Origin: an uncultured Muribaculaceae bacterium
GTDB lineage: Bacteria; Bacillota_I; Bacilli_A; RF39; UBA660
Direction: 5' to 3'
Length of the DNA: 36,676 nucleotides
NCBI GenBank assembly: GCA_964652065.1
Contig: CAZYZU010000002.1
Span: forward strand, 1 to 36,676
Shown here: one piece after another, positions 2,691 through 36,537 of the stretch
How positions within the stretch are numbered: the first letter of the stretch is position 1
Layout of the letters: each line of letters begins with the position of its first letter
Position numbers and translations under genes: made by a program
The notes under the pieces: model-generated
Database searches by the model: none
Told to the model about the DNA's origin: nothing
Seen by the model: the letters and a program-made list of their open reading frames with translations, nothing else

Positions 2691-2762
2691 TTTGTAATAA
2701 TTTATCTATTTTATGATAAAATTGTAGTAATAGATTTATATATATTAAAAGTGAGGATTATA

Positions 2763-3368: not shown

Positions 3369-3485
3369 AGCTAAGGCTCTTTTTCTTTACTTTTTCCTTA
3401 TTTTGTGGTATAATTTACGAACAAAAGGAGGGGTAATATTGTATTTTATATTGATGGTAAAAAAGTTAGATATAATCCTTACAAT

Positions 3486-4829: not shown

Positions 4830-4885
4830 AACTTGTCTTTTTTAGTGTTTTATAGTAAAATCTAATATAGTTTTGAGGTGGAAAT

Positions 4886-16009: not shown

Positions 16010-16101
16010 GATTATTCCTCCATATATATTTTAACACATATAAAACACTTTTCAAATATTTAAAAATATGTTATAATATGCGCATAAAAAGGGAGGTTAT
16101 T

Positions 16102-16995
16102 ATGAAAACAATAACTTTAACCAAAAAACAATTAGAAAAATTAACAAGAATAGAATTACCTAAAGAGGTTGCTAACACAGAAAGTGAAATATATTTATTA
16201 GATAAAGGTAATTGGCGATACAGTGATGGTTCTTTATTATTAAAAAAATTACATTTAATTAGTGGTGATTCTATAGCTAATAAATTATATAATATTAGTT
16301 TGTTAGGAGATAATGAAGAAAGAATTGGATTAGATGAGCTAGTTATACCTAAACAATTGGTATCTGTTGATAATAATGTTATTGGATTTACAGTTCCAAG
16401 GATAGATGGTGAAAATTTAGGAGTTATTTTACATGATTATAAAGTTTCTAACGAAGATAAAATTAAATATTTATATAAAGTTGGTAAATTATTAAAAAAA
16501 ACAAAGAAAATGACTAATATAGGATTAAAATTTAATTTTGGTGATTTACATGAATATAATTTTTTAATTAATGAGAATAATGAACTAAGAGCAATTGATT
16601 TAGATAGTTGTTATTTAAATACTTTAAATCCTTCACCATCTTATTATCTAAATACTAATAAAAATTTGGATATTTTTAAAGATAAATATAAAAAGAATGA
16701 TATGGGAATTGTATATCCTGATGATAACAGTGATTTATTATGTTATATTATGATGATTTTAAATACAATTGGTAGAGAAAAGATTTCAAGATTAGGTGTT
16801 TCAGATTATTTTGAGTATGTTAACTATTTAGATAATTTAGGATTTGGTAAGGATATTATTCGTTCCTTTCAAAATATTTATTCAAAAACTAATAATATTA
16901 ATCCATCTAATTATTTAGAACAGATACCTGATGATAAAATTGGTGAGGCTTCTTTTAAAGTTTTCAATTTAAAGAAAAAAAGAGGTATACTATAA
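16102..16995 (+). CDS. protein-kinase-like fold protein, distant paralogue of 3486..4829
   Basis: ATG at 16102 lies 5 nt after GGGAGG. FGDLHEYNFLINENNELRAIDLDSCY (HxDLHxxN...D-type motif). Confidence 0.5.
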   Translation: MKTITLTKKQLEKLTRIELPKEVANTESEIYLLDKGNWRYSDGSLLLKKLHLISGDSIANKLYNISLLGDNEERIGLDELVIPKQLVSVDNNVIGFTVPRIDGENLGVILHDYKVSNEDKIKYLYKVGKLLKKTKKMTNIGLKFNFGDLHEYNFLINENNELRAIDLDSCYLNTLNPSPSYYLNTNKNLDIFKDKYKKNDMGIVYPDDNSDLLCYIMMILNTIGREKISRLGVSDYFEYVNYLDNLGFGKDIIRSFQNIYSKTNNINPSNYLEQIPDDKIGEASFKVFNLKKKRGIL

Positions 16996-17000
16996 AACAA

Positions 17001-17029
17001 TTGTAAAAATATAAAAAATAGTCTATAAT
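17001..17029 (+). promoter_or_regulatory. promoter of T-box/HD/valS operon
   Basis: TTGTAA, 17-nt spacer, TATAAT. Confidence 0.55.
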
Positions 17030-17035
17030 ATATGT

Positions 17036-17257
17036 AGATGCATTGATATCGAGGAGTATATAATAAAAATTTTTAGAGAGGTTATGGTTGCTGAAAATAA
17101 CTAATTGATATTATAGAAGGTAGCGATGGAGCATAGTTATTGAAAATAAGTAAATAATTCCGGATAATTCCGTTAAAAATATTGAGATTATTATTTAATA
17201 ATAAATTAAGGTGGTACCACGAACTATTCGTCCTTATAGGATGGGTAGTTTTTTTTT
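17036..17257 (+). promoter_or_regulatory. T-box leader, probable Val specificity
   Basis: Stem I AGAGA bulge (about 17075). Candidate specifier GUA at 17120-17122 in GAAGGUAGC. T-box sequence AATTAAGGTGGTACCACG (17204-17221). Terminator CTATTCGTCC/AGGATGGGTAG plus T9 (17224-17257). Confidence 0.8.
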
Positions 17258-17271
17258 GGAGGGATATAGTT

Positions 17272-18027
17272 ATGGATAGAGCTATTGAAGAGTTTAAAAT
17301 TTATACTGATTCTTATATTGAAATAAGTGATAAATGTGTATTAAAAATAGATCATACTTTTCGAGTCATGGAATTATGTAAAAAGATTGCTTTGAGTTTA
17401 AATTTAAATAAAGAAGACATATCTTTAGCAATGTTATGTGGACTATTACATGATATTGGTAGATTTGAACAATGGAAGAGATATAATACTTTTGTAGATG
17501 GTAAAAGTATTGATCATGGCGATTTAGGAGTAGAAATTTTAACAACAAATAAATTTTTAAGAAAATTTATTGATTCTGAAGAATTTGATTCAATTATATT
17601 AAATAGTGTTTTATTTCATAATAAATATAATATTTCAAATGAATTGAGTGAGCGTGAAAAACTTTTTTGTAAAATAGTTAGAGATGCTGATAAAATTGAT
17701 ATTTTATATTTATATACAATTGGGCATTTAAGTGTTGATACAAATAATGAAATTTTTAGTGATGATGTATTAAATTCTTTAAGAAATAATAAGTTAATAG
17801 AAAGAAAAATGAAAAAGACTAAGGCAGATACTCTATCTGTATCACTGGGATTTGTTTTTGATATTAATTTTAAAAAAAGTATTGAAATATTAAAGAAAAA
17901 TAATTATATAAATAAGGAAATTGATATTTATAAAGAAAAAACTAATAATTTAGATTTTATTAATGAATTAGAAGAAGTTAGATTAATAATAAATAAATAT
18001 ATAGAAAGTAGGTTAGAATTATGTTAG
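17272..18027 (+). CDS. HD-domain phosphohydrolase
   Basis: ATG at 17272 after [18 protein letters not shown] motif. Stop overlaps the valS start (ATGTTAG). Confidence 0.7.
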
Positions 18028-18932
18028 ATAAAAAATATAATCATATAGAAGTAGAAGAGGGTAAATATAATGAATGGATAGAAAAAGGATATTTTTCATC
18101 GGGAGATATGTCAAAGAAACCTTTTTGCGTAGTTATTCCTCCACCAAATGTTACAGGTAAACTTCACTTAGGTCATGCTTGGGATGTAACACTTCAAGAT
18201 ATTATAATTCGTTATAAAAGAATGCAAGGATATGACTGTTTATGGCTTCCAGGAATGGATCATGCAGGTATTGCTACTCAAGCTAAAGTTGATAAAAAGT
18301 TACGTGATGAAGGAGTTAATCCTAGATCATTATCAAGAGAAGAATGGACTAAAAAAGCTTGGGAATGGAAAGATGAATTTGCACAAACTATTCATTCTCA
18401 ATGGGCTAAGATGGGTATTAGTGTTGATTATAATAAAGAAAGATTTACATTAGATGATGGTCTTAATCAAGCAGTTAACAAAGTGTTTATTGACTTATAT
18501 AATAAGGGTTTAATATATAGAGGAGAAAGAATTATTAACTGGGATCCTGTTCAAATGACAGCTTTATCTAATGAAGAAGTTATTTATCAAGATGATCCAG
18601 GGGCATTTTATCATTTGAAATATTTTATTGAAGATAGTGATAAATATTTAGAAGTTGCGACAACTCGTCCTGAAACATTATTTGGCGATACTGCAGTAGC
18701 AGTTAATCCAGAAGATGATAGATATAAAGATTTAATAGGAAAGAATGTTGTTTTACCAATAGTTAATAAGCTAATTCCAATTGTAGGAGATTCTCATGCT
18801 GATCCTGAGTTTGGTACTGGTGTTGTTAAAACGACACCCCTTGGTACAAACTCAATATTTACAAGGGTTAGCGAAGGGATAATGAACATAATTAATCAAT
18901 TATTTATACAAAGAAAAGAGGTAAATGCATAA
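18021..18932 (+). pseudogene. valS: 5' fragment of bacterial-type valS (native codons 1-270, then a 33-codon element-derived tail)
   Basis: [19 protein letters not shown] block ... [11 protein letters not shown]. The frame then diverges into TTPLGTNS... at 18831. The continuation is found at 30840. Confidence 0.9.
18832..18848 (+). repeat. left terminal arm (attL, element side)
   Basis: CGACACCCCTTGGTACA is an inverted partner of 30818..30836. Confidence 0.7.
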
Positions 18933-21349
18933 TGTTAGATAAAAAATATAACGCACAAGAAAAAGAAGAAAAATGGTTAAATTATTGGAAAGAAAATGGA
19001 GTTTATGATTTTAAACCAGATCAAAGAGAAGTTTTCTCAATAGATACTCCACCACCAACAGTTAATGGAAAAATACATATTGGACATATTTTTTCATATT
19101 CACAAACTGAAATGATTGCAAGATATAAAAGACTAAGAGGGTATAATATCTTTTATCCATTTGGATTTGATGATAATGGATTACCTAGTGAAAGATTAGT
19201 AGAAAAAGAACAAGGCAAAAAAGCACATGAAATTGGAAGAGAAGAATTTTCAAAATTATGTTATGAAACTACTGATAAATATGAGGCTGATTTTCAAAAC
19301 TTATTTAGTAAAATGGGAGTTAGTACAGATTGGAATATTCATTACAAAACGGTAAGCCCATCAACAATTAAAATTAGTCAAACATCATTTTTAGATTTAA
19401 TTGATAAAGGACATTGTTATCATAAAGAAAGTCCTGCATTATGGTGCAATGAATGTTTAACATCAATCGCACAAGCAGAACTTGAAACAAAAACAATTAA
19501 AACAACATTTAATTATGTTAATTTTAAAACAGTTGAAGATGGTGAAGAATTTACAATAGCAACTACTAGACCTGAATTATTACCAGCCATTGTATGCGTA
19601 TTTGTAAATCCTAAAGATGAAGAACATAATCATTTAATTGGAAAAACTGCTCATATTCCAGTTATAGATGTTGAAGTACCAATTATGGGTGATGAAAAAG
19701 TAGCAATTGATAAAGGTACAGGAGTTGTTATGTGCTGTACATTCGGTGATCAAACTGATATTGAATGGTGGAAGAAATATAATTTACCACTTAAGTATAT
19801 TTTTACTGCAGATGGTAAAATTATTGATTCTGTACCAAATTATGGTGGAATGAAAATAAAAGCAGCTAGAAAACAAATTGTTGAAGATTTACAGGCAGGT
19901 GGCTTTATTGTAAAAATAGAAGAATTAGAACACGAAGTACAAACACATGAAAGATGTGGAAGAGAAGTAGAATATTCAGTAATGAAACAATGGTTTATTG
20001 ATATTATGAACCATAAAAAAGATTTCTTGAAAATTGGTAATGAAATAAAATGGCATCCTGAACATATGCATAATAGATATAATGAATGGGTTGAAAATAT
20101 TTTATGGGATTGGTGTATTTCAAGACAAAGATATTTTGGTGTACCATTTCCAGTATGGTATTGTAAGGATTGTGGAGAACCTATCTTTGCTAAAAAAGAA
20201 GATTTACCAATTAATCCACTAACAACTAAACCACATATTGATAAATGTCCTAAATGTAATTGCAGTGAATTTGTTGCTGAAACTGATGTAATGGATACTT
20301 GGGCAACTTCATCTGTTACACCACTTATTAATATGAGATACGGTGAAAAAGAAAATTATGAAGACATATTAAAACCAATGAGTATAAGAACAAATGCATC
20401 TGAGATTATTAGGACATGGGATTTTTATACAATTGTAAAAAGTTTTTATCATTTTGGTATGCGTCCATGGAATAATGTTATGATTTCAGGATTTGTTATG
20501 GCAAGTAAAGGTGAAAAGATTAGTAAAAGTAAAGGAAATGCTAAAGTTGAACCAATAGATGTTATTAATCAATATTCTGCCGATGTAGTTAGATATTGGG
20601 CTGGATCAGGAAGACTTGGAACTGATATTGTATTTAGTGATGAAACTTTATTAAGAGGAAGAAAATTAGTTAATAAAATATGGAATGTCTCAAAATTTAT
20701 TGAAATGCATTTACAAGATTATGAAGATAAAGAGTTTAATAATTTTGAATATGTAGATAAATGGATATTGGGAAAATTTCAAGAAATGGAAGAAGGATTT
20801 GTTAAATATTTAGATGATTATGAAGTTGGATTAGCACTTAATCATTTAGAAAAATTCTTTTGGAATTTCTGTGATAATTATATAGAAATAGTTAAGCATA
20901 GACTATATAGACCTGAAGAATTTGGAGATGAACCAAGATATTCAGGACAAAAAACTGTATTTACAATATTATATAAATTATTACAAGACTTTAGTATATT
21001 CTTCCCATTTATTACTGAAGAAATATATCAAGAACTATATCATGGTAATAAATCAGTTCATTTAACTGAAATTAAACCATTAAATTTTGATTTTAGTAAA
21101 GAAATTATTAATGGTGATAAAATGATTGATATTATAAGTCAAGCAAGAGGAGAAAAATCAAATAATAATTTATCTTTAAAAACTCCTATAAAAATATTAG
21201 AATTAGGTGTTAATGAAGAACTTAAAAATGCTATAGAATCTTCTATTAAAGATTTTAAAGCAACATTATTTATAAAAGATTTAAAAATAGATATTTCTAA
21301 TGATGATAAAATAAATAAAATTGAATTAGAAATTGAAACAACAGAGTAA
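18932..21349 (+). CDS. valS: valine--tRNA ligase, divergent type-2 (archaeal/actinobacterial-like), element-encoded
   Basis: 805 aa. HIGH NGKIHIGHIFSY. KMSKS-like GEKISKSKGN. FPFGFDDNGLPSE, GTGVVMCCTFGDQTD, WCISRQRYFGVPFPVWYC. No C-terminal coiled coil. ATG overlaps the upstream TAA. Confidence 0.85.
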   Translation: MLDKKYNAQEKEEKWLNYWKENGVYDFKPDQREVFSIDTPPPTVNGKIHIGHIFSYSQTEMIARYKRLRGYNIFYPFGFDDNGLPSERLVEKEQGKKAHEIGREEFSKLCYETTDKYEADFQNLFSKMGVSTDWNIHYKTVSPSTIKISQTSFLDLIDKGHCYHKESPALWCNECLTSIAQAELETKTIKTTFNYVNFKTVEDGEEFTIATTRPELLPAIVCVFVNPKDEEHNHLIGKTAHIPVIDVEVPIMGDEKVAIDKGTGVVMCCTFGDQTDIEWWKKYNLPLKYIFTADGKIIDSVPNYGGMKIKAARKQIVEDLQAGGFIVKIEELEHEVQTHERCGREVEYSVMKQWFIDIMNHKKDFLKIGNEIKWHPEHMHNRYNEWVENILWDWCISRQRYFGVPFPVWYCKDCGEPIFAKKEDLPINPLTTKPHIDKCPKCNCSEFVAETDVMDTWATSSVTPLINMRYGEKENYEDILKPMSIRTNASEIIRTWDFYTIVKSFYHFGMRPWNNVMISGFVMASKGEKISKSKGNAKVEPIDVINQYSADVVRYWAGSGRLGTDIVFSDETLLRGRKLVNKIWNVSKFIEMHLQDYEDKEFNNFEYVDKWILGKFQEMEEGFVKYLDDYEVGLALNHLEKFFWNFCDNYIEIVKHRLYRPEEFGDEPRYSGQKTVFTILYKLLQDFSIFFPFITEEIYQELYHGNKSVHLTEIKPLNFDFSKEIINGDKMIDIISQARGEKSNNNLSLKTPIKILELGVNEELKNAIESSIKDFKATLFIKDLKIDISNDDKINKIELEIETTE

Positions 21350-21354
21350 TTTTA

Positions 21355-21382
21355 AAACATAGATAATTTCTATGTTTTTTTT
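21355..21382 (+). terminator. intrinsic terminator after element valS
   Basis: AAACATAG-ATAATTT-CTATGTTT followed by a T-run. Confidence 0.7.
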
Positions 21383-21407
21383 GAACAAAATTGGAGGTGA
21401 TAAATAA

Positions 21408-22165
21408 ATGACAGTTTTTAAAATTGAAAAACAAAGGATTTTACTGTAATGAGTAATCATCATTTAAGAGATAGAAACTTAACATATAAGGCTAAAGGAT
21501 TGTTATCATTCATGATATCTTTACCAGAAGATTGGGATTATTCTTTAGCAGGTTTGACAGCGATAAGTAGAGAAAGTAAGGATGGAATAAGATCAATTTT
21601 AAAAGAATTGCAGGATAATCATTACTTGGAAATAGAAAAAGTAAGAGGAGAAAAAGGATATTTTGAATATAATTATTTAATATATGAAAAACCACATTTT
21701 TTGTCATATGAAATTGACAATCAAAATCCATGTATGGAAAATCCACATCTGGATGAACCAGATATGGAAATATCAATACAAATAAATACTAATATATTAA
21801 ATACTAAGGAACAAATAGATAAAGGTGATAAAACAAAATCATCTTTTTTTATTGCTGAAGAACATAATGGCTTAACATTAAATTTGATTAATCGTGGTTA
21901 TATTAATGAATCTGATTTACAAGTTTTTTACTATGATAAAATGTATGATGATTTATTAGATGATGATAATTCATATAGAGATTTGTTAATTATATCTGAT
22001 TATGTTGTAAGTAGAGTAATAAAAAGAGATTTCAAAGATGATGATGGTAATGTAATAAAAAATAAATTTGGTTATTTAAAAGAGGGGATATATGTAAATA
22101 TCAGAAGAAGTCATTTGGATTTAGATGATTTATGGGGATTAAATGATGATGATATTGAAAGATAA
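21408..22165 (+). pseudogene. wHTH replication-initiator-like protein (plasmid/ICE Rep type), N-terminus frameshifted
   Basis: Strong RBS GGAGGTGA before ATG 21408 gives MTVFKIEKQRILL*. The main ORF (21449..22165, MSNHHLRDRNLTYKAKGLLSFMISLPEDWDYS) lies in another frame, and its upstream extension reads KDFTV. Confidence 0.55.
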
Positions 22166-22293
22166 TTTTTGTTTATCCAATTTTATATGATAAAAGAAAA
22201 TTATATTATAATACTAAAAACAGAATTATCCTTTATTGTGATAACTTTTTAATATAGAAAAATTGATATAGTAAAAAAATAAACTAAAATGTA

Positions 22294-22322
22294 TTGACTT
22301 AATTCAATAATAGTAGTATTAT
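22294..22322 (+). promoter_or_regulatory. promoter of leader ORF/RSH/YcaO/precursor unit
   Basis: TTGACT, 17-nt spacer, TATTAT. Confidence 0.5.
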
Positions 22323-22356
22323 TTAACTTAAATTATTTGAAAGGGGATTCTAAACT

Positions 22357-22482
22357 ATGAATAAACTCTTATTAGAAAAACAATTTAATAAAAATAGTTT
22401 TTATTACAAAATCATTTGCAACAATGACTGTTTATGCCTTTCCCTTGATAATATTACTATGTGTAAAAGAGTTCGACTTTAA
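22357..22482 (+). CDS. 41-codon Cys-rich small ORF (leader peptide or second RiPP substrate)
   Basis: MNKLLLEKQFNKNSFYYKIICNNDCLCLSLDNITMCKRVRL. RBS AAAGGGGA. The stop codon lies inside the 5' arm of the downstream terminator. Absent from the ORF track. Confidence 0.4.
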   Translation: MNKLLLEKQFNKNSFYYKIICNNDCLCLSLDNITMCKRVRL

Positions 22483-22511
22483 AATTATTATGTTTTAAAG
22501 TCGTCTTTTTT
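22473..22511 (+). terminator. intrinsic terminator/attenuator immediately upstream of the RSH gene
   Basis: CGACTTTAAA ... TTTAAAGTCG stem followed by TCTTTTTT. Ends 18 nt before ATG 22529. Confidence 0.65.
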
Positions 22512-22528
22512 ATAAGAAGGAGTATTTT

Positions 22529-23968
22529 ATGAGTGAAATTACTGTTGAATATTTATTAAAAAAGATAAAAGAATATAATCCAGAAGAAGAAAAGTCGATA
22601 ATGAAAGCTTATGAATTTGCCAATAATCTACATAGTGGTCAAATTAGACAGAGTGGTGAACCTTATATATCTCATCCATTGAATGTTGCTTATATTCTTG
22701 CTGAAATGAATGCAGATAAAGATACAATTTGTGCAGGATTATTACATGATACTTTGGAAGACACCAATACCACAAAAGAAGATATTTCACATGAATTTAA
22801 TGCTACTGTTGCTAACTTGGTTGATGGAGTAACAAAAATGAGCAAAATGAATTTTTCTTCTAAGCAAGCACAAAATATGGCAAACACAAGAAAAATAATT
22901 ACAGGAATTACTGAAGATGTTAGAATAATAATTATAAAGTTAGCAGATAGATTACATAATATGAGAACATTAGAATTTAAAAGTGAGTTTAAACAAAAAG
23001 AAAATGCACTAGAAACTATGGAAATATTTGTTCCACTTGCTTACTACATTGGTGCATATAGAATAAAATCTGAGTTAGAGGATTTATCTCTACAATATTT
23101 AAAACCAGATATGTATAAGACAATAAAGGAAAAACAACAAAAAATAGAATATGAAAGCAGAGATTGCTTACAAGAAATGTTAGGAAAAATTAAATCAATG
23201 TTAGAAGATAAGGATATTCCTAATGAAATTAAAGTTAGAACTAAAAATATTTATGGAATATACAAAAGATTAAATGATGGACATAAATTATCTGATATTC
23301 ATGATTTACTAGCATTGAAAATAATGGTAGATGAGATTGATAATTGTTATAGAACTTTAGGTATGATTCATCAAGAATATCATCCAATCAATGATAAGTT
23401 TAAAGATTATATTTGTAATCCAAAAACAAATATGTATAGATCATTACATACTACTGTTTTTGGACCTGATGATAGATTAGTACAAACACAAGTAAGAACA
23501 TTTGATATGGATAAGATTGCATCTTTTGGATTAACAGCATATTGGGCAGTACAAAAAGGGAAAGCAAGAGATGTTATGCAAAAAGATTTAAAAGAAAAAT
23601 ATCAGTTTTTTAAATCTTTAACTGAAATCAATACAATGTTTGGGGATAATCAACAATTTGTAAGTCAAGTTAAATGCGAATTATTTGCCGACAAAGTTTA
23701 TGCATACACCACCAAAGGTGATATAATTGAACTTCCTAAAGGTTCAACACCAATTGACTTTGCTTATAAAATTCATACTGATATTGGAAACACAATGGTT
23801 GGGGCTTTTGTAAATGATGAATATGTTCCTGTTGATTATATGTTAAGGAACAAAGATAGGGTAAAAATAATTACTGATGATTTATCATTTGGTCCAAGAA
23901 ACGATTGGGAAGAAAAGGCGCAAACCACATATGCAAAGAGAAAAATAAAAGAATTTAGTAAAAAATGA
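22529..23968 (+). CDS. truncated RelA/SpoT homologue (HD hydrolase + synthetase-like + TGS; no C-terminal regulatory domains)
   Basis: HPLNVA...LLHDTLEDT, DRLHNMRTL (hydrolase). VRTKNIYGIYKRL, DLLALKIMV, YRSLHTTV, QTQVRT (synthetase-like). TGS VYAYTTKGDIIELPKGSTPIDFAYKIH. Ends at the position where the helical/ZFD/ACT region normally begins. Confidence 0.85.
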   Translation: MSEITVEYLLKKIKEYNPEEEKSIMKAYEFANNLHSGQIRQSGEPYISHPLNVAYILAEMNADKDTICAGLLHDTLEDTNTTKEDISHEFNATVANLVDGVTKMSKMNFSSKQAQNMANTRKIITGITEDVRIIIIKLADRLHNMRTLEFKSEFKQKENALETMEIFVPLAYYIGAYRIKSELEDLSLQYLKPDMYKTIKEKQQKIEYESRDCLQEMLGKIKSMLEDKDIPNEIKVRTKNIYGIYKRLNDGHKLSDIHDLLALKIMVDEIDNCYRTLGMIHQEYHPINDKFKDYICNPKTNMYRSLHTTVFGPDDRLVQTQVRTFDMDKIASFGLTAYWAVQKGKARDVMQKDLKEKYQFFKSLTEINTMFGDNQQFVSQVKCELFADKVYAYTTKGDIIELPKGSTPIDFAYKIHTDIGNTMVGAFVNDEYVPVDYMLRNKDRVKIITDDLSFGPRNDWEEKAQTTYAKRKIKEFSKK

Positions 23969-23984
23969 AGTTTGAGGTGATGAT

Positions 23985-26111
23985 ATGATAAATTGGAAAA
24001 AATTCAAACCTATACTTGTTGTTCCTTCGATACCTACTGAAGATGGAATTAGATTTTTATGTCAAGATCAGCAATTGGATATTAATGGAGAAATAGTACC
24101 AATTTTGTGGAAAATTCTTTCTTTATGTAATGGATATAGAACATTAGATGAAATATTTGATGAATCTAAGATAGAATATGATCTTATAAAAGATATTTTA
24201 TCTGAGTTAAATGAACAGAACCTGATTTTTGATGCGTGCGAACAATATAAATATTTTCATTCTATCAGCAGTTATCCTGCAAAATATTTGCAATTATTAA
24301 GTGAAGAAGAAGTAATAAATCATAAAAAAAGTCAGAGAAAAGAAGTTAAAAAAGGAAAAAGTTTATCTTTTAATAATGATCAGGAATCATGTTTATATAA
24401 ATTGCAACTTAATAGAAAGTCCTGTAGAAATTTTTCAAAAGATAGAAAGTTATCATTAAATCAGCTTGGAAATATATGTAATTATGCGTATTCTTTAAAA
24501 AGACATGCAACCCCAAGTGGTGGAGCTCTTTATCCTTTAAAAATCTTTTGTATCGTAACACAAAATCAAAAAGATTTTGATTCTGGTTATTATGAATATG
24601 ATAATGAAAATGATAAGTTGGTACTATATAATTGTAATCCTGATAATGAGCAATTAAAATATTGCTATAATGATGAAAAATTAGCTTTCAATTCTTCTAT
24701 ACAAATAGTTATATGTGCAGACTTTGAAAGACAAGCATATAAATATTCAAATAGAGGTTATAGATTATCTCTAATAGAAGCAGGACAAGTAGCACAAAAT
24801 ATATCTTTATATTGTGAAGAAAAAGGACTATCAACCTGTGAACTTGGTGGTCTGCTTGATATTCCACTTGCTAAGGAATTAGATATATATGATAGTAATA
24901 TTTATCCTGTTTTAGGAATAGCAATTGGATACTCCGATTCTAAAGAAAATTTTAGTTATTCACAATTTTTGTCTAAGTTAACCAATGAATTTGTTGGCGA
25001 AAATAAACCAATAAAAAGTTTTGGAATTAATTACTTGAATATTTTTGATTCATCATTTTATGGTGCTTGGGCAAAATATGGAAATGATTCAAAAAGAATT
25101 GCTGGTGCAACAGCTCTATCTTATAATGAGTCAATTTGCAAAGCAATTATTGAAGGATATGAAAGATATCGTTCTGAAAAAGTAAGAATAGATTACGTTG
25201 GAGAATGTCAAAATTCAAAAAGATATTTTAATCCTGATGATATTGCACCTTTATCAAGCAAACAAAGAATATTGTGGGGATTAAAAAATTATACATTTGG
25301 GGATAAAATAGAATGGACAAAAGATATAACTGGCAAGTATTACATTCCAACGGATTTTGTTTTTTATGGACATAATAAAAAAGAAAAATTATTTTTAAGT
25401 GATTCTTCTGGTATAGCAGCATATTCGGATTATGAAACAGCAAAAAAAAGAGCTCTATTAGAACTTATTGAAAGAGATGCAATAATAAGAAATTGGTATA
25501 ATCAAATATCTGCACCAAAAGTTAATCCAGATATAGTATCTCAACATATAAAAAATAGAATTGAATATTGGAAAAATAAAGGAAGAACAATTCATATAAT
25601 GGATTTAGATTCAATATCTGCATCGGTTTTTCTTGTAGTTATAGTAAGTGATGAATATCCTTGCTTTGTAAGTGGATCATCTGCAGTTATTGATACGGCC
25701 GATAGTGCAATGCTAAAAGCATTGCAAGAAGCAGAATACAATTTGCTGTTAGCAATAGAAAATCCTTTTGAAAATGCACCTGAAATTGACAAAATAAAAA
25801 CCCCTCAAGATCATGGAAGGTATTATCATTTTTTAGAGAATGCAGATAAGATATCTTGGCTATGGAAAAGTAAACTTATTTCTGATAAACAAATTAAAAA
25901 AATTACAGATTTATCTAAGGCAATTGATGAATTAGATACTGTATTTGTTGATTTATCAGATAAGGACTCATCTATAAAAGTAGTTAGAGCTGTTTCTAGA
26001 AAACTTGTTCCTATAAGTTTTGGATACCATAGGGATTATTATTTGCATCATATATTACAAGAAAATGGATTTGATGAAAAAATAAGAAATCTTCCACATT
26101 ATTTTGCTTAA
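23985..26111 (+). CDS. fusion protein: PqqD-like RRE + SagB-type (nitroreductase-fold) dehydrogenase + YcaO cyclodehydratase
   Basis: N-terminus ILWKILSLCNGYRTLDEIFDES...LNEQNLIF (RRE-like). RKSCRNFS...TPSGGALYPLKIF...YKYSNRGYRLSLIEAGQVAQN...CELGG (SagB). AIIEGYERYRS...SSGIAAYSDYETAKKRALLELIERDAI...PQDHGRYY (YcaO). Confidence 0.85.
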   Translation: MINWKKFKPILVVPSIPTEDGIRFLCQDQQLDINGEIVPILWKILSLCNGYRTLDEIFDESKIEYDLIKDILSELNEQNLIFDACEQYKYFHSISSYPAKYLQLLSEEEVINHKKSQRKEVKKGKSLSFNNDQESCLYKLQLNRKSCRNFSKDRKLSLNQLGNICNYAYSLKRHATPSGGALYPLKIFCIVTQNQKDFDSGYYEYDNENDKLVLYNCNPDNEQLKYCYNDEKLAFNSSIQIVICADFERQAYKYSNRGYRLSLIEAGQVAQNISLYCEEKGLSTCELGGLLDIPLAKELDIYDSNIYPVLGIAIGYSDSKENFSYSQFLSKLTNEFVGENKPIKSFGINYLNIFDSSFYGAWAKYGNDSKRIAGATALSYNESICKAIIEGYERYRSEKVRIDYVGECQNSKRYFNPDDIAPLSSKQRILWGLKNYTFGDKIEWTKDITGKYYIPTDFVFYGHNKKEKLFLSDSSGIAAYSDYETAKKRALLELIERDAIIRNWYNQISAPKVNPDIVSQHIKNRIEYWKNKGRTIHIMDLDSISASVFLVVIVSDEYPCFVSGSSAVIDTADSAMLKALQEAEYNLLLAIENPFENAPEIDKIKTPQDHGRYYHFLENADKISWLWKSKLISDKQIKKITDLSKAIDELDTVFVDLSDKDSSIKVVRAVSRKLVPISFGYHRDYYLHHILQENGFDEKIRNLPHYFA

Positions 26112-26157
26112 CATTTAAAATGTTAATATATATTTATATATGAAAGGAGGTGATATT

Positions 26158-26271
26158 ATGGATAAGAAAGTTTTAAATTTCAAAAGTGTTAAATATACAA
26201 AATCAAACTCATTAGCAGCATGCGTAACTGGTGGTGGTGGTTGTGCTTGTGATGATGGTACAGGCGAATAA
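26158..26271 (+). CDS. 37-aa RiPP precursor peptide candidate (azol(in)e-type core)
   Basis: MDKKVLNFKSVKYTKSNSLAACVTGGGGCACDDGTGE. Near-consensus RBS GAAAGGAGGTGA 5 nt upstream. Terminator follows. Absent from the ORF track. Confidence 0.75.
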   Translation: MDKKVLNFKSVKYTKSNSLAACVTGGGGCACDDGTGE

Positions 26272-26288
26272 TCATTATTTGAGTTATA

Positions 26289-26317
26289 ACATCAGATTTT
26301 AATCTGGTGTTTTTTTA
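26289..26317 (+). terminator. intrinsic terminator after precursor gene
   Basis: ACATCAGAT / ATCTGGTGT stem followed by T7. Confidence 0.7.
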
Positions 26318-26371
26318 TAATTAATTATAATTATCATCTGATATTAATTGGGTAAGTAAAAAATGTAGCTA

Positions 26372-26815
26372 CTAACTACATTTTTTTGTCTTTCCTAGGA
26401 TATCATCTATTGAAATTTTATAATATTTTGCAAAATCTACTAATAAAGAAGTAAGTATTAATGTTTTTCCTAATTCATACTTAGAATAATTTGACTGATC
26501 TGTTTGTATGATTTTAGCAATTTTTTCTTGGGTATCATTATGCTTTTTTCTAATGTTTTTTAGATTGTTAGCAATGATATTTATATTTAATTCCTGATTT
26601 ATTATTTCTATATTTTTATTATTAGATAATCCACAAATATAATCTATACTTATATTAAAATAATTGACAAAATCATTTAGTTTTAATAATGGTATTGTGT
26701 CAATTCCATTTTCCCAACCTGCATAGGTAGATCTACTAACACCTAAAATTTGTGCCATTTCATTTTGTGTTTTATCAAAGTTTTCCCTAATATCTTTCAT
26801 TCTATTATAATCCAT
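26372..26815 (-). CDS. XRE-family regulator with two tandem HTH domains
   Basis: TQNEMAQILGVSRSTYAGWENG and TQEKIAKIIQTDQSNYSKYELG repeats. Confidence 0.85.
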   Translation of the reverse strand: MDYNRMKDIRENFDKTQNEMAQILGVSRSTYAGWENGIDTIPLLKLNDFVNYFNISIDYICGLSNNKNIEIINQELNINIIANNLKNIRKKHNDTQEKIAKIIQTDQSNYSKYELGKTLILTSLLVDFAKYYKISIDDILGKTKKCS

Positions 26816-26920
26816 GTAAACACCTCTTTAATAATTTTCTCATTTATAAATAAATAATTTAAAAAGTGTCGGGTATAGTCCTAAAATGTGATATAATATT
26901 TAAATGAAAGAGGTGATTTT

Positions 26921-27214
26921 ATGTACTTATCATTTAGAAATTTTTTTGGTATTGCAGTCAAAAGTTTATTAATTACTTTATGTATTGCTTTGTGTTTTGG
27001 GTTAGTGATTATTAATTGTAATTTTGCAGAATATATATGTAAAATTACAAGTATTCCAAATAATCTTGCATTAACTGTTATGAGTCCTGGTTTTTATAAT
27101 GAAGTAGTTATTATTACTAGTGTATTTGAAATAGGATTTTTAGTTTATATTTGTAATAAACTTCTTAAGTATCCTAAAATAAATGAATTGTACGAAAGAA
27201 TCTATTATTTATAA
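26921..27214 (+). CDS. small polytopic membrane protein (unknown; immunity candidate)
   Basis: 97 aa with 2-3 hydrophobic helices. RBS AGAGGTGA. Confidence 0.5.
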   Translation: MYLSFRNFFGIAVKSLLITLCIALCFGLVIINCNFAEYICKITSIPNNLALTVMSPGFYNEVVIITSVFEIGFLVYICNKLLKYPKINELYERIYYL

Positions 27215-27299
27215 ATATTATTAGTTAATATTGTTTACATATCGTAGTTTTAAATATATAATAGAAAACTACTAGCGAAAAGTATTGGAAGGTTATAAT

Positions 27300-27659
27300 A
27301 TGAATAATGAAGAATATGAAATGTTTTTTAATTTAATTGCAGTATTAGAAAAAGAAAAGAGAATAAATAAAAAATTTTACAATTCACCAGATACCAAATT
27401 TATTAAAAAAAATGAATTTGTTCTTTCTAATGATGTAAAAAAGGGATTAATATTATTTGAGTATAAAAGATATTTTTTATTAGATATTTATATAAGTGAT
27501 AGTAACAATATCTTAAATGGTCTATTAAACCTTAAAATAGAATCAAAAGAAGATGCAGAAATAGAATATAATAATTACATAGAATATGTAGAAAAAACAA
27601 GTGTCTTGCAGATAATGAAAAATAAAATAGAAAAAAATAATCAACCCCTTATAAAATAA
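27300..27659 (+). CDS. hypothetical protein
   Basis: About 119 aa from ATG 27300. No family recognised. Confidence 0.45.
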   Translation: MNNEEYEMFFNLIAVLEKEKRINKKFYNSPDTKFIKKNEFVLSNDVKKGLILFEYKRYFLLDIYISDSNNILNGLLNLKIESKEDAEIEYNNYIEYVEKTSVLQIMKNKIEKNNQPLIK

Positions 27660-27944
27660 GGACAAAACAAATAAAAAATCGAAAAAGTGCTTGAATTGGT
27701 ACTATAAGGTGTTTTTATTGTTCCAATATTATGCCTTAATTGGTACGAAAAAAGTGTTGATTTATCCTTGTCAAGTAGTATAATAATGTAAAATGAAATA
27801 AATGTGAGAAGAAAAAACACTTCTTGCATTTTTTTTGTTTAAAAAGTGTTGACAAGATAATCAAAAGAATATAAAATAAAAAATAATTTTATATGTAACT
27901 TTGATGGCAGTATTTTTCAAAGAACAATGTTGGGAGGAAACTCA

Positions 27945-28049
27945 ATGATATATGGGGATATTACTGCTTTTTTATTTAAAAATCTTAATGAACGATTAAT
28001 TGATTATCATGGATTTTCAACACCGATATTGAAAGAGAGATTGTTTTAG
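27945..28049 (+). CDS. 34-codon small ORF ending in the terminator stem
   Basis: MIYGDITAFLFKNLNERLIDYHGFSTPILKERLF. RBS GGGAGGA 6 nt upstream. Absent from the ORF track. Confidence 0.3.
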   Translation: MIYGDITAFLFKNLNERLIDYHGFSTPILKERLF

Positions 28050-28084
28050 GGACTTCTAGCCCCCAAAATTGTCTCTCTTTTTTC
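28032..28084 (+). terminator. long-stem intrinsic terminator/attenuator before the ArpU-like gene
   Basis: 16-bp stem AAAGAGAGATTGTTTT/AAAATTGTCTCTCTTT with one mismatch, 17-nt loop, then TTTT. The RBS and ATG 28101 follow immediately. Confidence 0.65.
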
Positions 28085-28100
28085 GTAGGAGGGTAAGGTT

Positions 28101-28556
28101 ATGGAAATATTATTACGAAAAGAAACAATAAGAGAGTTTGATGTAACATCATGTAAGGAGAATTTAGAAAAAATAATAACAGAGTATATTAAAGCAAAAT
28201 ACAGTTATATAAATATTAAAAAGCAGGGAGAAGAATATTACAATTCATCATCTGGTGTTAATTATGATTATAGACCTGAATGTTTTACTATTAAATATAG
28301 TGATAGAGTTGCTAATAAGATTGGTTTTAAAATAGATAATGAAAGAGAAGCAATAGAAGTAGGATATAAAATCAATGAATTATATAAAAAGTTTACTGAC
28401 GGAGAAAGAGATTTCTTTGATATTATTTTGCTTAATGGTAATGCTCAAAAATTTGTAGAAGATAAATACAGATTATCCAAACATGGTCTTGAGCCAATAA
28501 AACAAAGTTGTATAGTAAAATCAGCACTTCATTTTGGAGTTGCAGTTTATAGATAA
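28101..28556 (+). CDS. possible ArpU-family / sigma region-4-like transcriptional regulator
   Basis: 151 aa. Size, position and the C-terminal helix-rich segment (ERDFFDIILLNG...YRLSKHGLEPIKQSCIVKSALHFG) resemble phage ArpU regulators. Weak call. Confidence 0.3.
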   Translation: MEILLRKETIREFDVTSCKENLEKIITEYIKAKYSYINIKKQGEEYYNSSSGVNYDYRPECFTIKYSDRVANKIGFKIDNEREAIEVGYKINELYKKFTDGERDFFDIILLNGNAQKFVEDKYRLSKHGLEPIKQSCIVKSALHFGVAVYR

Positions 28557-28810
28557 TATTTCCATAGGGGCTTTATGCTCCTTTTATTTTGGAACAATTT
28601 ATGAGTTTATAGGGATCTCATTGTCAAAAAACTATGAAAGGAATGATTAAAAATGATGCAATTTATTTTAAAAATACCATAAATTAGTTTTTTTATTAAA
28701 AAACGCTTGCAAAAATCATGTTTTTAAGTGATTAATATATTAGAAGAAATATCTTATATAAAGCCATTTAAACGGCATATTTCAAATGTTAAGTTGGAGG
28801 TTGATAAGTT

Positions 28811-30802
28811 ATGAGCAAAAAAAGAAAGCGATTGTTATATTTGATTATTTTAGTTCTATTTTTTTTAATTATAATAGTATCTTTTATTTTTATTAATAAT
28901 ATAAAAAATAATAATAAAGATGTTAATGAATTAAATTCAGAACAAGAAGTTGAAAATGTTAAAGAAAGCAAAGAAGATGATGATGAACAAATAATAGAAG
29001 ATAAGGAAGATAAAATAGATGATGTTAATGAAACATCTGATGGCACTTCAAAGAACAATAGTAATAATGGTTCATCAAGTAATTATAATGTTACTACTGA
29101 TTCAACAAACAATACTTCTTCAAATAATAATAAAGTAACTCCACAATCTCCGCCTAATAATGATGAAACAATAAAAAAAGAAGAACCAGTACAACAAGCA
29201 CCACAAGAAGATTTAAGTAAGGTTGCAAATCCAAATGATTTCTTCTATTCAATAACTGGTGGTAAAGTAGAGTTTAACTCTAATACTGGTTGTATGTCAG
29301 CAGGAGATGAAATAGCACTTATAGATGTTGTTGATGTACAGTATTATAGATGCTATGAAGTATCATCAAAAGCAAATACTATTATGGGTTATTTCCTAAA
29401 TGTATTTTGTGCAAGTGGAAAAATAAAAGTTGTAATTGTAAAAAACTTATCTCGTTTAGGTAGAAGTAATTTTGAATGTGGTTATTATATGGATTATTAT
29501 TTTCCATCAGCCAATGTTAGATTTATGACTGTTCAAGAAGAAGTTGATACAAATGATGCATATAGTAGTAACAATGAATATGCACCTTTAAACAATTTTA
29601 TGAATGAAAAATATTCACGAGATTTATCAAAGAATATAAAAAATTCTAAAAGAGTAAAACAAAAAGCAGGGGAATATATTGGTAGCAATAATTCTCCATA
29701 TGGTTATAAAAAGGATCCTGCTGATAAACACCATCTAATAATAGATGAATATTCATCAACTATAGTTAAAAAGATATATGAATGGTATTTAGAAACAGGT
29801 TCTCAGGGAGAAGTTAGAAAAAGATTGTTTGAAAATAAAATTCCAACACCTGCTATATATCGCAATTATAAAACTATGACAGAAAAATTAAATAATCCAT
29901 ATCAATGGTCTGGAAGAACTATTAGATATATTTTAACAAGTCAAATGTATATTGGTAATATGGAACAACACAAGTATGAGAAAAAAAGTTTTAGAAGTAA
30001 AAAACTTTCTAGAGTTCCTAAGGAAAAATGGATTATAGTAGAAAATAAACATGAACCTATTATTGATAAAGATACATGGGATAAAGTTCAAAATATGATT
30101 AAAAACAATTATAAGCGGGCATCTACAAGACCACCAGAGTTATTTACAGGTATGCTTATATGTCATGAATGTAAACATAGAATGAGTATATCTACTAGAG
30201 ATAAAATTGGAAAAGATGGTACTTTTTATCATCATCAATACACCCAGTGCAATTATTATAGAAAAAATAGGAATTTAGGGGTTTGTTCTCTTCACTCAAC
30301 AAATTATTTAGAACTTGAAAAAGATGTTTTAAAGAAAATTGATGAGATTTGCAATAAATTTATAAAACTAATTAGTTATCAAAAAGTTACTAATGGAACA
30401 AAAATGGAAATGAGTTCTTATGAAAGAATATTAAATGAAAAAATTATTAAATTAGAATTTAATTTATCAAAAATTGATTGTCAAATTGAAAAATTATATA
30501 TGGATAGGTTGAATGATGTTATTTCAGTAGACACATATCAAAAAATATCTGCTAAATTTGAAACTGAAAAGGAACAATTAAAAACAACTCTAGAAGAAAT
30601 GAAAAATACATATATTCAATATCAACAAGATAATAATCAACAAACAATTTTATCAGCAAAAGAATTATCGGAAATGTATATAAAGCATAGAAAGAAACTT
30701 GATAGAGAATTGATAATGAAAATAGTAGATAGAATAGAAATACATGAAGATAAAAGTATAGATTTATTTCTAAAAATTAAGCCATTAGAACAGTTAATGT
30801 GA
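28811..30802 (+). CDS. chimeric ORF: TM/low-complexity exported-protein N-terminus fused to a large serine recombinase lacking the catalytic-Ser segment
   Basis: From about aa 203: GKIKVVIVKNLSRLGRSNFE, FMNEKYSRDLSKNIKNSKRVK, PYGYKKDPADKHHLIIDE, zinc ribbon CHECKHRM...CNYY..C, coiled coil. The first ~200 aa are unrelated (TM helix, D/E- and N/S-rich tracts). Confidence 0.8.
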   Translation: MSKKRKRLLYLIILVLFFLIIIVSFIFINNIKNNNKDVNELNSEQEVENVKESKEDDDEQIIEDKEDKIDDVNETSDGTSKNNSNNGSSSNYNVTTDSTNNTSSNNNKVTPQSPPNNDETIKKEEPVQQAPQEDLSKVANPNDFFYSITGGKVEFNSNTGCMSAGDEIALIDVVDVQYYRCYEVSSKANTIMGYFLNVFCASGKIKVVIVKNLSRLGRSNFECGYYMDYYFPSANVRFMTVQEEVDTNDAYSSNNEYAPLNNFMNEKYSRDLSKNIKNSKRVKQKAGEYIGSNNSPYGYKKDPADKHHLIIDEYSSTIVKKIYEWYLETGSQGEVRKRLFENKIPTPAIYRNYKTMTEKLNNPYQWSGRTIRYILTSQMYIGNMEQHKYEKKSFRSKKLSRVPKEKWIIVENKHEPIIDKDTWDKVQNMIKNNYKRASTRPPELFTGMLICHECKHRMSISTRDKIGKDGTFYHHQYTQCNYYRKNRNLGVCSLHSTNYLELEKDVLKKIDEICNKFIKLISYQKVTNGTKMEMSSYERILNEKIIKLEFNLSKIDCQIEKLYMDRLNDVISVDTYQKISAKFETEKEQLKTTLEEMKNTYIQYQQDNNQQTILSAKELSEMYIKHRKKLDRELIMKIVDRIEIHEDKSIDLFLKIKPLEQLM

Positions 30803-30817
30803 TGTATGATTATGATG

Positions 30818-30836
30818 TGTACCAAATGGTTTCGTG
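30818..30836 (+). repeat. right terminal arm (attR, element side)
   Basis: TGTACCAAATGGTTTCGTG. Its reverse complement CACGAAACCATTTGGTACA matches the left arm (outer 8/8, then 6/9). Confidence 0.7.
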
Positions 30837-32558
30837 AAAATTACTCCTGCACATGATCCTAATGACTTTGAAGTTGGTAATAGACATAATTTAGAACGTG
30901 TAGTTGTTATGAATAAAGATGCTACTATGAATGAAGCTGCAGGTAAATATTGTGGAATGAGTCGTGAAGAATGTCGCAAGGCTTTACTTAAAGATTTAAG
31001 TGATGCTGATTTACTTATAAAAGAAGAAAAAATGGTTCATAGTGTAGGTCACTCTGAAAGAAGTAATGCTGTTGTTGAACCATATCTTTCTAAGCAATGG
31101 TTTGTTAAGATGAGACCTTTAGCAGATAGAGTATTAGAAAATCAAAAAAACAAGGATACTAAAGTTAATTTTGTACCTCCTAGATATGAAAAAACTATGA
31201 ATCACTGGATGACTATTACTTATGATTGGTGTATTTCTCGTCAGCTTTGGTGGGGACATAGAATTCCTGCTTGGTATAAGGATGATGAAGTTAAGGTTCA
31301 AGTTGAAAATCCTGGGGAAGGTTGGGTACAAGATACTGATGTATTAGACACTTGGTTTAGTAGTGCTTTATGGCCATTCTCATCACTTGGTTGGCCAAAT
31401 GATATGAGTTTAGTTAATAGATATTATCCTACTAATGTTTTAGTAACTGGATATGATATTATTCCATTTTGGGTTAATCGTATGACTTTCCAAGGCTTAG
31501 AATTTACAAATACTATACCTTTTAAGGATTGCTTAATTCATGGACTTATCAGGGATAAAATAGGCCGTAAAATGAGTAAGAGTTTAGGTAATGGAGTAGA
31601 TCCAATGGATGTTATTGATAAATATGGATGTGATTCCTTAAGATACTTTTTAACTACTAACTCGGCACCTGGAGCTGATCTTCGTTATGATGAAGAAAAG
31701 ATAAAATCTAGTTGGAATTTTATCAATAAATTATGGAATGCATCTCGTTTTGTACTTATGAATATAGAAGATTTAAATGATGGTTCTATAGATAAAAATT
31801 TATTAACTATTTCTGATAAATGGATATTAACTCGTAAAAATCTACTTATAAAAAGTATAATTAAAAGTATGGATAAATATAATTTCCATAATGTTGGTAA
31901 TGAATTATATAAGTTTATTTGGGAAGATTTCTGTGATTCATATATCGAACTTTCTAAATCTAATATGAGTCTTAATACAAAAAAAGTTTTACTTAATGTA
32001 TTAACTGATATTTTAAAACTTCTTCATCCATTTATGCCTTATGTTACAGAAGAAATTTATAAAATGTTACCTATAAAAGAAAAAGAATCTATTATGATTA
32101 CAACATATCCAGAATATAATAGGGAATATGTATTTATGAGTGATGAAGATATGCTTTCTAAAGTATTAGAAGATATCGTTGCGATAAGAAATGTTAAAGC
32201 AGTTAATAAAATTGGAAAAGATGCTTTAGTTAACTTTACTTGTAGTGAAGAATTGATTCCTATTTATGCGTCTCAATTAAAAATAAAAGAAGAAAATTTA
32301 TGTAGTGATGATCCAGATAATAAAGTTACTACAAATTATAAATCTAAATATATTGATATTACTTATTTCTTTGATGAAGAAATAGTTGATCAAGATGCTT
32401 TATTAGAAGAGATTAAAAAATTAGAACAATCAATTGAAAGACGTAAGAAATTACTTTCAAATGAAAATTATGTTAATAAAGCTCCTAGTAATGTAGTAGA
32501 AGCTGATCGTAAAAAGTTAGCTGAAGAAGAAGAAAAGTTAGAATTATTAAAAAAATAG
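30834..32558 (+). pseudogene. valS: 3' fragment of bacterial-type valS (native codons 271-842)
   Basis: [44 protein letters not shown]-terminal coiled coil. No RBS before the GTG. Confidence 0.9.
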
Positions 32559-35826: not shown

Positions 35827-36537
35827 TTGTTTTCATTTTTAGCAGTTGTGATTGGTTCTTTTATGCCTTTTTTAATACTTGTTTTATTAATTGTTGTACA
35901 TGAATTAGGGCATTTTTTTTCAGCAATATTTTTTAAAATAGATGTAGATAAAATATATATATATCCTTTTGGAGGTATTTCTAAATTTAATATTTCTTTA
36001 AATGAAAGTTTATTAAAGGAATTTATTATTTTAATAATGGGGCCACTTTTTCAAATGATTTTTTTTCTTATAATTATTAATATAGATTATTTTAATAATT
36101 ATATTTCTTTAATTAGTGTTTATAATTATACAATTTTATTTTTTAATTTACTTCCTATATATCCTCTTGATGGAGGGAAATTATTAAATATTATTATGTC
36201 ACTATATTTTTCATTTAAGCAAAGTTTTATTTTTTCTATATATATATCTTATTTTATTATTATTTTAATATCTATCTTTTTTGTTTGTACAAATTTATCT
36301 ATTAATATAATTGTTATTGTAAGTTTTTTAATTTATAAAGTAAGAAGTGAATCTAGACGAGAAAAATATTTATTTGATAAATTCTTATTAGAAAGATATT
36401 TAAATGATTATAAATATTTAAAGAGAAAAAAAGTAGAAAATATTGATGAATTTATGAGAGGTAGATATCATTTTATGAAAATGAATGATAAATATTATAC
36501 TGAAAAGGCTATACTGGATAAAAAATTTAATAAATAG
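35827..36537 (+). CDS. M50 site-2 metalloprotease (SpoIVFB-like)
   Basis: HELGHF and NLLPIYPLDGG motifs. Polytopic. The start codon is uncertain. Confidence 0.75.
   Translation: MFSFLAVVIGSFMPFLILVLLIVVHELGHFFSAIFFKIDVDKIYIYPFGGISKFNISLNESLLKEFIILIMGPLFQMIFFLIIINIDYFNNYISLISVYNYTILFFNLLPIYPLDGGKLLNIIMSLYFSFKQSFIFSIYISYFIIILISIFFVCTNLSINIIVIVSFLIYKVRSESRREKYLFDKFLLERYLNDYKYLKRKKVENIDEFMRGRYHFMKMNDKYYTEKAILDKKFNK

Follow-up and report, generated by a model that had tools for sequence, protein, structure and literature searches.

Here, we report a mobile genetic element inserted in the valine--tRNA ligase gene (valS) of an uncultured bacterium deposited as Muribaculaceae (GTDB lineage Bacteria; Bacillota_I; Bacilli_A; RF39; UBA660). 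The window analyzed is the 36,676-nucleotide contig CAZYZU010000002.1 (GenBank assembly GCA_964652065.1; coordinates refer to its forward strand). The element carries a complete valyl-tRNA synthetase (ValRS) of a different type, called ValRS2 below, as its first gene, just behind the severed host gene and its tRNA-sensing T-box leader. The explanation that fits best, and that we hold to be probable, is that an integrative conjugative element splits valS and brings its own ValRS, coupled to the host T-box operon. Features are listed in Table 1; related loci and contigs are cited by L number and proteins by P number.

Insertion site and empty allele

Boundaries were obtained by comparison with an empty-site contig, L089. 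Positions 1 to 2799 of L089 are 100% identical to window positions 16033-18831 (0 mismatches in 2,799 nt), and L089 from position 2800 continues as the window from 30841, with the first mismatch at 33068 (2.2 kb clean). The host/element junction thus lies at 18831|18832, and the inserted DNA is 18832-30840 (12,009 bp). This empty-site allele proves the insertion. It bears out the initial annotation, which had read the integration as breaking the host valS: the two pieces hold codons 1 to 270 and 271 to 842 of a bacterial-type valS, split at codon 270/271, and the same gene is uninterrupted in L089. Joined in silico, the pieces encode an 842-amino-acid (aa) protein that, in a protein collection search, was 100% identical over its full length to P0395, which scores 1083 bits against the bacterial valS model (NF004349; curated cutoff, 704). 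The gene order on L089, the contig of P0395, is T-box region, HD-domain gene, valS, a 149-aa gene, radC, mreC, and mreD.

The host pieces meet at the motif GTGVVK|ITPAHD. A four-base core, AAAA, is found at both junctions, and the boundaries are exact against the uninterrupted gene in L089. The joined element ends read TGTACCAAATGGTTTCGTG-AAAA-CGACACCCCTTGGTACA, an imperfect inverted repeat that resembles a serine-integrase attP. The G+C content is about 25% across the window, the element being indistinguishable from its flanks. The 5′ fragment lies in an open reading frame (ORF; 18021-18932) that runs on through element DNA to a TAA at 18930-18932 and encodes 303 aa, while the open frame of the 3′ fragment (ORF 30834-32558) starts from a GTG at 30834, for which no recognizable ribosome-binding site was seen. 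Because the host fragments show no difference from the empty allele, the insertion in the window appears to be recent. Farther along the right flank, 17 of the 24 mismatches with L089 are bunched in about 200 nt (36319-36522), perhaps a tract of local recombination or of hypervariable sequence.

The element synthetase

The initial annotation had described the first element gene as a complete 805-aa class I synthetase with its catalytic motifs and without the coiled-coil tail of the host enzyme, and profile searches agree on each point. ValRS2 scores 982.9 bits against NCBIfam NF009687 (PRK13208 valine--tRNA ligase; cutoff, 738; profile positions 6 to 794 of 801), compared with 543.5 bits on the bacterial valS model (below its cutoff of 704), 405.7 bits on ileS, and 170 to 201 bits on the leuS models, scores that speak against an IleRS or LeuRS. 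Its class I signatures are kept, with HIGH in the context NGKIHIGH and KISKS aligned with the host KMSKS. The CP1 editing motif, GTGVVMCCTFGDQTD, aligns with the corresponding host motif, and both conserved Asp residues are present. No match in ValRS2 was found to the coiled-coil family PF10458 (Val_tRNA-synt_C), which the host 3′ fragment does match. The two enzymes share 29% identity, and the nearest solved structure to ValRS2 is that of T. thermophilus ValRS (1GAX). ValRS2 is thus a ValRS of a type other than the host's and a putative tRNA-Val charging enzyme. The ratio of nonsynonymous to synonymous divergence (dN/dS) of ValRS2 is 0.05 to 0.25 across species pairs and 0.05 to 0.14 between diverged lineages, which indicates purifying selection across species. 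A search of species-representative genomes found its nearest relatives outside its own clade to be metagenome proteins at most about 50% identical, and in a plasmid collection the best valS matches were 34 to 36% identical, with nothing closer than 36%.

Host valS (18021-18040) and ValRS2 (18932-18951) have an identical 20-nt start, ATGTTAGATAAAAAATATAA (MLDKKYN). We considered whether the 5′ end of ValRS2 had been borrowed from the host gene and rejected this, since a distant PRK13208-type ValRS also begins MLDKKYD; the common start may reflect family similarity and codon bias. Recombination between these 20-nt direct repeats would remove the host fragment and leave an HD-ValRS2 junction such as those in L046 and L062. 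The region of ValRS2 homologous to the host attB (GGTACAGGAGTTGTTATGTGCTGTACATTC; window positions 19715-19760) keeps the left half-site and is without the AAAA core and the right half-site, so elements of this family probably do not target the replacement gene.

Coupling to the host T-box operon

Upstream of the HD-domain gene and valS, the predicted T-box leader was confirmed by a match to RF00230 at 17034-17238 (134.7 bits; gathering score, 93), followed by its terminator. In the specifier loop, all 12 leaders that were aligned read GAA-G-GU(A/U)-G, and one of these leaders lies upstream of a split valS. Since GU(A/U) is followed by G throughout, the specifier column fixes a Val codon and excludes the overlapping GGU. 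The stop codon of the HD-domain gene overlaps the valS start (ATGTTAG). The order T-box-HD-valS recurs in L089 (HD-domain gene at L089 positions 1240-1995) and in many relatives, and an HD-domain gene of about 250 aa stands between a Val T-box and valS in many species of the group.

ValRS2 begins just inside attL, as initially annotated: its ATG lies 100 nt within the element, past the junction, on the same strand as the host gene. The host frame stays open over the junction and ends at TAA 18930-18932, which overlaps ATG 18932-18934 by one shared A (TAATG), behind a Shine-Dalgarno sequence (AAGAGG; 18916-18921) located 10 nt upstream. All of this can be read directly from the DNA. In the window's leader, taken as 101 nt, the host frame has 0 stops and the other two frames have 4 and 2; about 5% of shuffled leaders are likewise open.

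A consensus terminator scan of the plus strand from the T-box terminator (17221-17251) to 22474 found no terminator, and a laxer scan for hairpins with U runs gave nothing convincing before 21355, in keeping with the view that no terminator intervenes between the leader and the end of ValRS2. The hairpin at 21355-21382, which had been proposed as the first terminator, is the probable intrinsic terminator closing the operon, plausible but weak. Promoters are harder to judge. Promoter-like matches occur at chance frequency (45 found versus 46.7 expected at 25% G+C), so that sequence cannot establish the absence of a promoter. The sole match in the element leader, at 18905-18933, has its −10 element over the ATG. 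With this reservation, ValRS2 would be “promoterless,” and the arrangement points to cotranscription from the T-box through ValRS2 together with translational coupling.

Comparison with related loci

Relatives were sought by a scan of one genome per species, in which at least 586 contigs encode a ValRS2 relative. We fetched the 80 best loci (82 to 91% identical to ValRS2) and four from other look-ups, each as the match with up to 10 kb on each side. All contigs with a ValRS2 relative come from metagenome-assembled genomes of uncultured gut Bacilli-like bacteria, from human, chicken, rabbit, mouse, and ruminant samples.

In 12 of these loci, about 100 nt separate an intact host 5′ fragment (269 to 271 codons) from ValRS2. 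Relative to the ATG, the stop of the host frame is at −2 (TAAtATG), 0 (TAATG), or +6 (ATGTTAG) in 12 of 12 relatives, or 13 of 13 with the window included. The leaders fall into at least four diverged variants, in each of which the host frame alone is open: it has 0 internal stops, compared with 1 to 7 in the other frames, and 2 to 5% of shuffles are open. A Val T-box upstream of the split valS was confirmed with Rfam in L014 and located by motif search in the others. The conserved open frame and stop/start arrangement are as expected from selection for cotranslation with the host gene. Because both are conserved in diverged leaders, the relatives support the core of the initial annotation, namely, that an element in valS brings a ValRS of another type behind the host T-box in a stop/start arrangement.

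Some species carry nearly the same element. Over 11.7 kb, L039, L040, and L041 have element DNA that is 100.000% identical, and over 9.7 kb that of L009 and L008 is 99.8% identical, while the host flanks of these same loci are alignable only across valS, at about 75%. In these comparisons, synonymous divergence (dS) is 0 to 0.02 for ValRS2 and above 1 for the host fragments, with a dN/dS of about 0.1 for the latter. The family is thus moving between species at present, and the host fragments diverged as working genes before insertion. Their intactness follows from the recency of the insertions, given a dS above 1 and a dN/dS near 0.1 beside identical elements. The idea that the fragments are old pseudogenes held open by selection, or halves of a split enzyme, was rejected: those of the window are identical to the empty allele, and elsewhere the elements are identical.

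Other loci show stages of decay. Host 5′ fragments with internal deletions still end at residue ~270 (L013, L016, L045, and L002); L059 has leader-only remnants; and remnants of the 3′ fragment lie between ValRS2 and the downstream genes in L015, L007, L016, and L078. In the final stage ValRS2 directly follows the HD-domain gene or the T-box, the host gene being gone. In many relatives the locus has no valS other than ValRS2, and fresh insertions are scattered among fixed copies in a neighbor-joining tree of ValRS2. Once the element has decayed, ValRS2 stays behind the T-box as the resident valS. Of the cargo, the RelA/SpoT and SagB-YcaO genes (Table 1) persist beside ValRS2 in the decayed loci L002, L007, L016, and L073.

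A more distant element, whose recombinase is 69% identical, also lies inside valS (L087, positions 2665-5445). It has a tRNA-Val(UAC) gene directly upstream of an 875-aa PRK13208-type ValRS that is 51% identical to ValRS2, and so would supply both the enzyme and its substrate tRNA. Because this valS element bears a different ValRS of the same type, carriage of a ValRS seems to go with the target site, while the route of expression can vary.

Recombinase and mobility of the window copy

The last gene of the element is a fusion ORF. Its residues 1 to ~200 resemble a 208-aa membrane protein that related elements encode separately, and residues 203 to 663 correspond to a large serine recombinase that has lost its N-terminal 87 residues, where members of this family have the active-site serine. 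The Resolvase domain is matched only at Pfam positions 58 to 144; the Recombinase and zinc-ribbon domains are also matched, and the best NCBIfam matches are CcrB and XisF. Aligned with P0123 (548 aa), the window recombinase starts at P0123 residue 88 and is 77% identical. A search for the N-terminal piece across the window gave no significant match. A deletion has thus fused the two genes, removing the catalytic N-terminal part together with the intervening DNA. Because the first 87 residues are missing, the window copy is predicted to be incapable of excising by itself.

No conjugation genes (coupling protein, type IV secretion, or relaxase) were found in the element of the window. Full-length relatives of the recombinase are 548 to 553 aa long with the catalytic N terminus intact, and in L085, L087, and L088 the 3′ fragment of host valS begins no more than about 30 nt past the intact gene (548 to 552 aa), at the same codon. 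L085 has genes for a TraG/VirD4 coupling protein and a 2,122-aa SNF2 helicase just upstream of the recombinase, and genes for a sortase and a large SpaA-type adhesin occur in the left parts of related elements (L039 and L001). No relaxase was seen in the relatives' loci, and no single fetched locus holds a complete element. From its gene content, the family looks like a Gram-positive integrative conjugative element, of which the window would hold a 12-kb deletion remnant.

Proposed mechanism and alternatives

We propose that the large serine recombinase recombines an attP, which is an imperfect palindrome, with an attB in valS; this attB is the DNA for GTGVVK|ITPAHD, a conserved motif in the editing domain of bacterial-type ValRS. 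The essential valS would be cut in two by integration, and ValRS2, which comes first after attL and has the orientation of the host gene, would replace the broken enzyme. With no terminator in the leader and the host frame open, ribosomes would stop at, or overlapping, the ValRS2 start behind its Shine-Dalgarno sequence. Transcription of ValRS2 would then start at the host valS promoter, subject to the tRNA-Val-sensing T-box, and its translation would proceed by termination-reinitiation coupling. The window copy would be fixed in place by the loss of the catalytic N terminus of its recombinase and of its conjugation genes. ValRS2 is most likely the only working ValRS of the cell, and since the catalytic N terminus of the recombinase is missing, the cell plausibly depends on the element copy.

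Four observations weigh against this explanation. A strong sigma-70-like match (TTAACA-17-TATAAT; 11 of 12 positions) lies within the host fragment at 18475-18503, and transcription of ValRS2 may therefore be independent of the T-box. Another valS may exist beyond the visible 36.7 kb. A recombinase-dead 12-kb remnant occupies a site whose flanks are identical to the empty allele, which requires an extra step; candidates are an early deletion after entry, a recombinase acting in trans, or import of the region by homologous recombination. Lastly, four species (L027, L056, L061, and L074) have both ValRS2 and an intact host-type valS, arranged in tandem within a single T-box operon, so ValRS2 would not always be a forced replacement. 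The tandem loci lie at about 9960-12460 in L056 and about 1560-4070 in L061. In both, the ribosome-binding region and the first codons (e.g., AAAGGATGATATTATGTTAGAAAAAAAATATAA) are duplicated on both sides of ValRS2. Such an arrangement cannot come from the type of insertion seen in the window, which suggests a second route of acquisition, and the duplication suggests that this route was recombination at the common 5′ end rather than the serine recombinase.

The tandem species are also among the grounds for regarding ValRS2 as mainly a beneficial cargo gene (for example, one insensitive to a ValRS inhibitor), for which compensation is secondary. This account overlaps with the one we prefer. 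It would suit the wide spread of the gene among species-representative contigs and the high identity of the best 80 relatives, as well as the presence of a SagB/YcaO peptide-modification enzyme on the same element. No inhibitor or producer was identified, however, and related loci lack a homologue of the one small cysteine-rich ORF beside the gene for that enzyme. The position of ValRS2 at attL, behind a host frame that has been kept open, is conserved and looks designed for compensation, and the different ValRS of the same type on the distant valS-resident element fits a requirement of the target site; we consider the cargo account unlikely on its own. Still less likely is that ValRS2 has its own promoter, in the host fragment or the leader, and escapes T-box control, the overlap being incidental. 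The hexamers at 18475-18503 and 18905-18933 could serve, but such matches occur at chance frequency, and the second would initiate past the ATG. Moreover, diverged leaders retain both the open host frame and the stop/start arrangement, and in species with a decayed element ValRS2 is found directly behind the Val T-box.

We also doubt, slightly more strongly, that the cell is independent of ValRS2, whether because the fragments reassemble as a split enzyme or because another valS lies elsewhere. Both host fragments are intact open frames, the visible genome is only 36.7 kb, and split class I synthetases do occur naturally (Aquifex LeuRS). The intactness of the fragments is, however, explained by a recent insertion that leaves them identical to the empty allele; the break falls inside a conserved editing motif, the 3′ fragment lacks a recognizable ribosome-binding site, and in other species the fragments decay and vanish. 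That the arrangement is a chimera of metagenome assembly is scarcely credible. The window is a whole assembled contig, apparently metagenomic, but at least 12 assemblies, independent of one another and from different hosts, have the same-codon junction, matching att half-sites stand at both ends, and the empty site matches exactly.

Relation to known systems

SXT/R391 elements in prfC and the dusA elements insert in a conserved housekeeping gene and keep its function expressed, using tyrosine recombinases and a target at the 5′ end of the gene, as summarized in PMC8409611 (citing Hochhut & Waldor 1999). The element described here is likewise site specific and inside a housekeeping gene, but its recombinase is of the serine type, the cut is made in midgene, and the original gene is not restored. 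Examined for target restoration, host valS stays split (codons 1 to 270 and 271 to 842), and the element provides a different, complete gene with no recognizable promoter. This xenologous gene would be placed on the host promoter, riboswitch, and upstream translation.

Tn5397-type elements, SPbeta/skin-type elements, and SCCmec with CcrAB likewise have a Resolvase-Recombinase-zinc-ribbon recombinase at the element end, a short core, an imperfectly palindromic attP, and a target in coding sequence. To our knowledge, the known targets of large serine recombinases are dispensable genes or genes restored through programmed excision. Here, by contrast, the target is an essential synthetase gene, a substitute is carried, and the catalytic part of this copy's recombinase has been lost. 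The plasmid-borne IleRS2 enzymes MupA and MupB (mupA/mupB) and the self-resistance synthetases of antibiotic gene clusters are additions beside the chromosomal gene, selected by antibiotics. They resemble ValRS2 as mobile, divergent class I synthetases apparently able to take over charging; in our case the resident gene is destroyed as the substitute arrives, and the resident regulatory leader is taken over.

Xenologous displacement of synthetases has been inferred from phylogenies, for example, in work on the transfer of universal single-copy genes (PMC3151239). Here, too, a synthetase of foreign type ends up replacing the cell's own, and in addition the vehicle, insertion site, empty allele, and decay intermediates are visible. 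Literature searches turned up no account of an element with valS as its target or with a replacement synthetase on board, nor of a midgene cut of an essential synthetase gene combined with a foreign substitute on the host leader and upstream translation.

We lean toward the broader view, held with less assurance than the reading of the window itself, that a conjugative family lands in the most conserved stretch of valS and that its foreign ValRS takes over the riboswitch and the upstream translation, resulting in a repeated and ongoing PRK13208-type replacement across hundreds of gut Bacilli species. If true, this would be the first synthetase displacement caught at all stages (empty site, fresh insertion, decaying remnants, and clean replacement), and an element would have become indispensable through an essential-gene swap rather than a toxin-antitoxin pair. 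In many lineages, native aminoacyl-tRNA synthetases have given way to foreign-type ones, but the mechanism by which an essential single-copy gene is displaced has so far only been deduced from trees; here, a single recombination event would break the old gene and put the new one in its place, with the regulation unchanged. Every potential host would have the target, a near-invariant motif of an essential gene, which the element can afford to use because it brings a substitute, and imprecise loss of the element would be lethal. The comparison also defines attP/attB pairs (predicted sites) of serine integrases for uncultured low-G+C gut Firmicutes, cautions that valS, as a marker in this group, is subject to horizontal replacement, and offers a natural test of a T-box serving a noncognate synthetase gene.

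Element content and other features

Table 1. Features of the valS region and of the inserted element, in order of position in the window
Feature	Position	Strand	Evidence and remarks
Val-specific T-box leader with terminator	17034..17257	+	Rfam RF00230, terminator scan; terminator stem 17221-17251 with U run
HD-domain gene, first of the T-box operon	17272..18027	+	Pfam PF01966, E 2.4e-15
Host valS 5′ fragment, codons 1-270	18021..18831	+	NF004349 positions 2-269; nucleotide-identical (100%) to intact allele in L089
attL crossover core AAAA	18828..18831	.	attL/attR/empty-site comparison; exact crossover within the four bases ambiguous
Element leader, 100 nt, with attP arm ACACC-N4-GGTACAAA	18832..18931	+	Open in host frame
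ValRS2, 805-aa PRK13208-type valine--tRNA ligase without C-terminal coiled coil	18932..21349	+	NF009687
A/U-rich hairpin followed by run of eight U	21355..21382	+	−9.4 kcal/mol, z −2.5; first hairpin with U run after the T-box
HTH_36 protein	21449..22165	+	PF13730; homologues at same position in L001, L005, L008, L009, L039
Short RelA/SpoT homologue, 479 aa, without C-terminal regulatory domains	22529..23968	+	Cargo
SagB-dehydrogenase/YcaO fusion	23985..26111	+	Cargo
XRE-type double-HTH regulator	26372..26815	-	Pfam HTH_3, HTH_19; homologues in L001, L005
Fusion ORF: membrane-protein part and large serine recombinase	28811..30802	+	Pfam; ends 35 nt before attR
attR crossover core AAAA, with attP arm TGTACCAAATGGTTTCGTG just before	30837..30840	.	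Two attP arms form an imperfect inverted repeat
Host valS 3′ fragment, codons 271-842: KMSKS, anticodon-binding domain, coiled-coil arm	30841..32558	+	NF004349 positions 265-857; PF10458

Just upstream of the RelA/SpoT and SagB-YcaO genes, the plus strand holds a 41-aa ORF with four cysteines (MNKLLLEKQFNKNSFYYKIICNNDCLCLSLDNITMCKRVRL; 22357-22482), preceded by a promoter-like site (22294-22322) and followed by a strong terminator (22474-22503). It is a possible candidate for a peptide precursor; a role as the precursor acted on by the YcaO enzyme was considered, but a search of related loci gave no homologue.

Outside the element, window positions 2090-2697 (plus strand) encode a full-length OLE (ornate large extremophilic) RNA (376 bits; gathering score, 50), in a host that is apparently a gut commensal with a G+C content of 25%.

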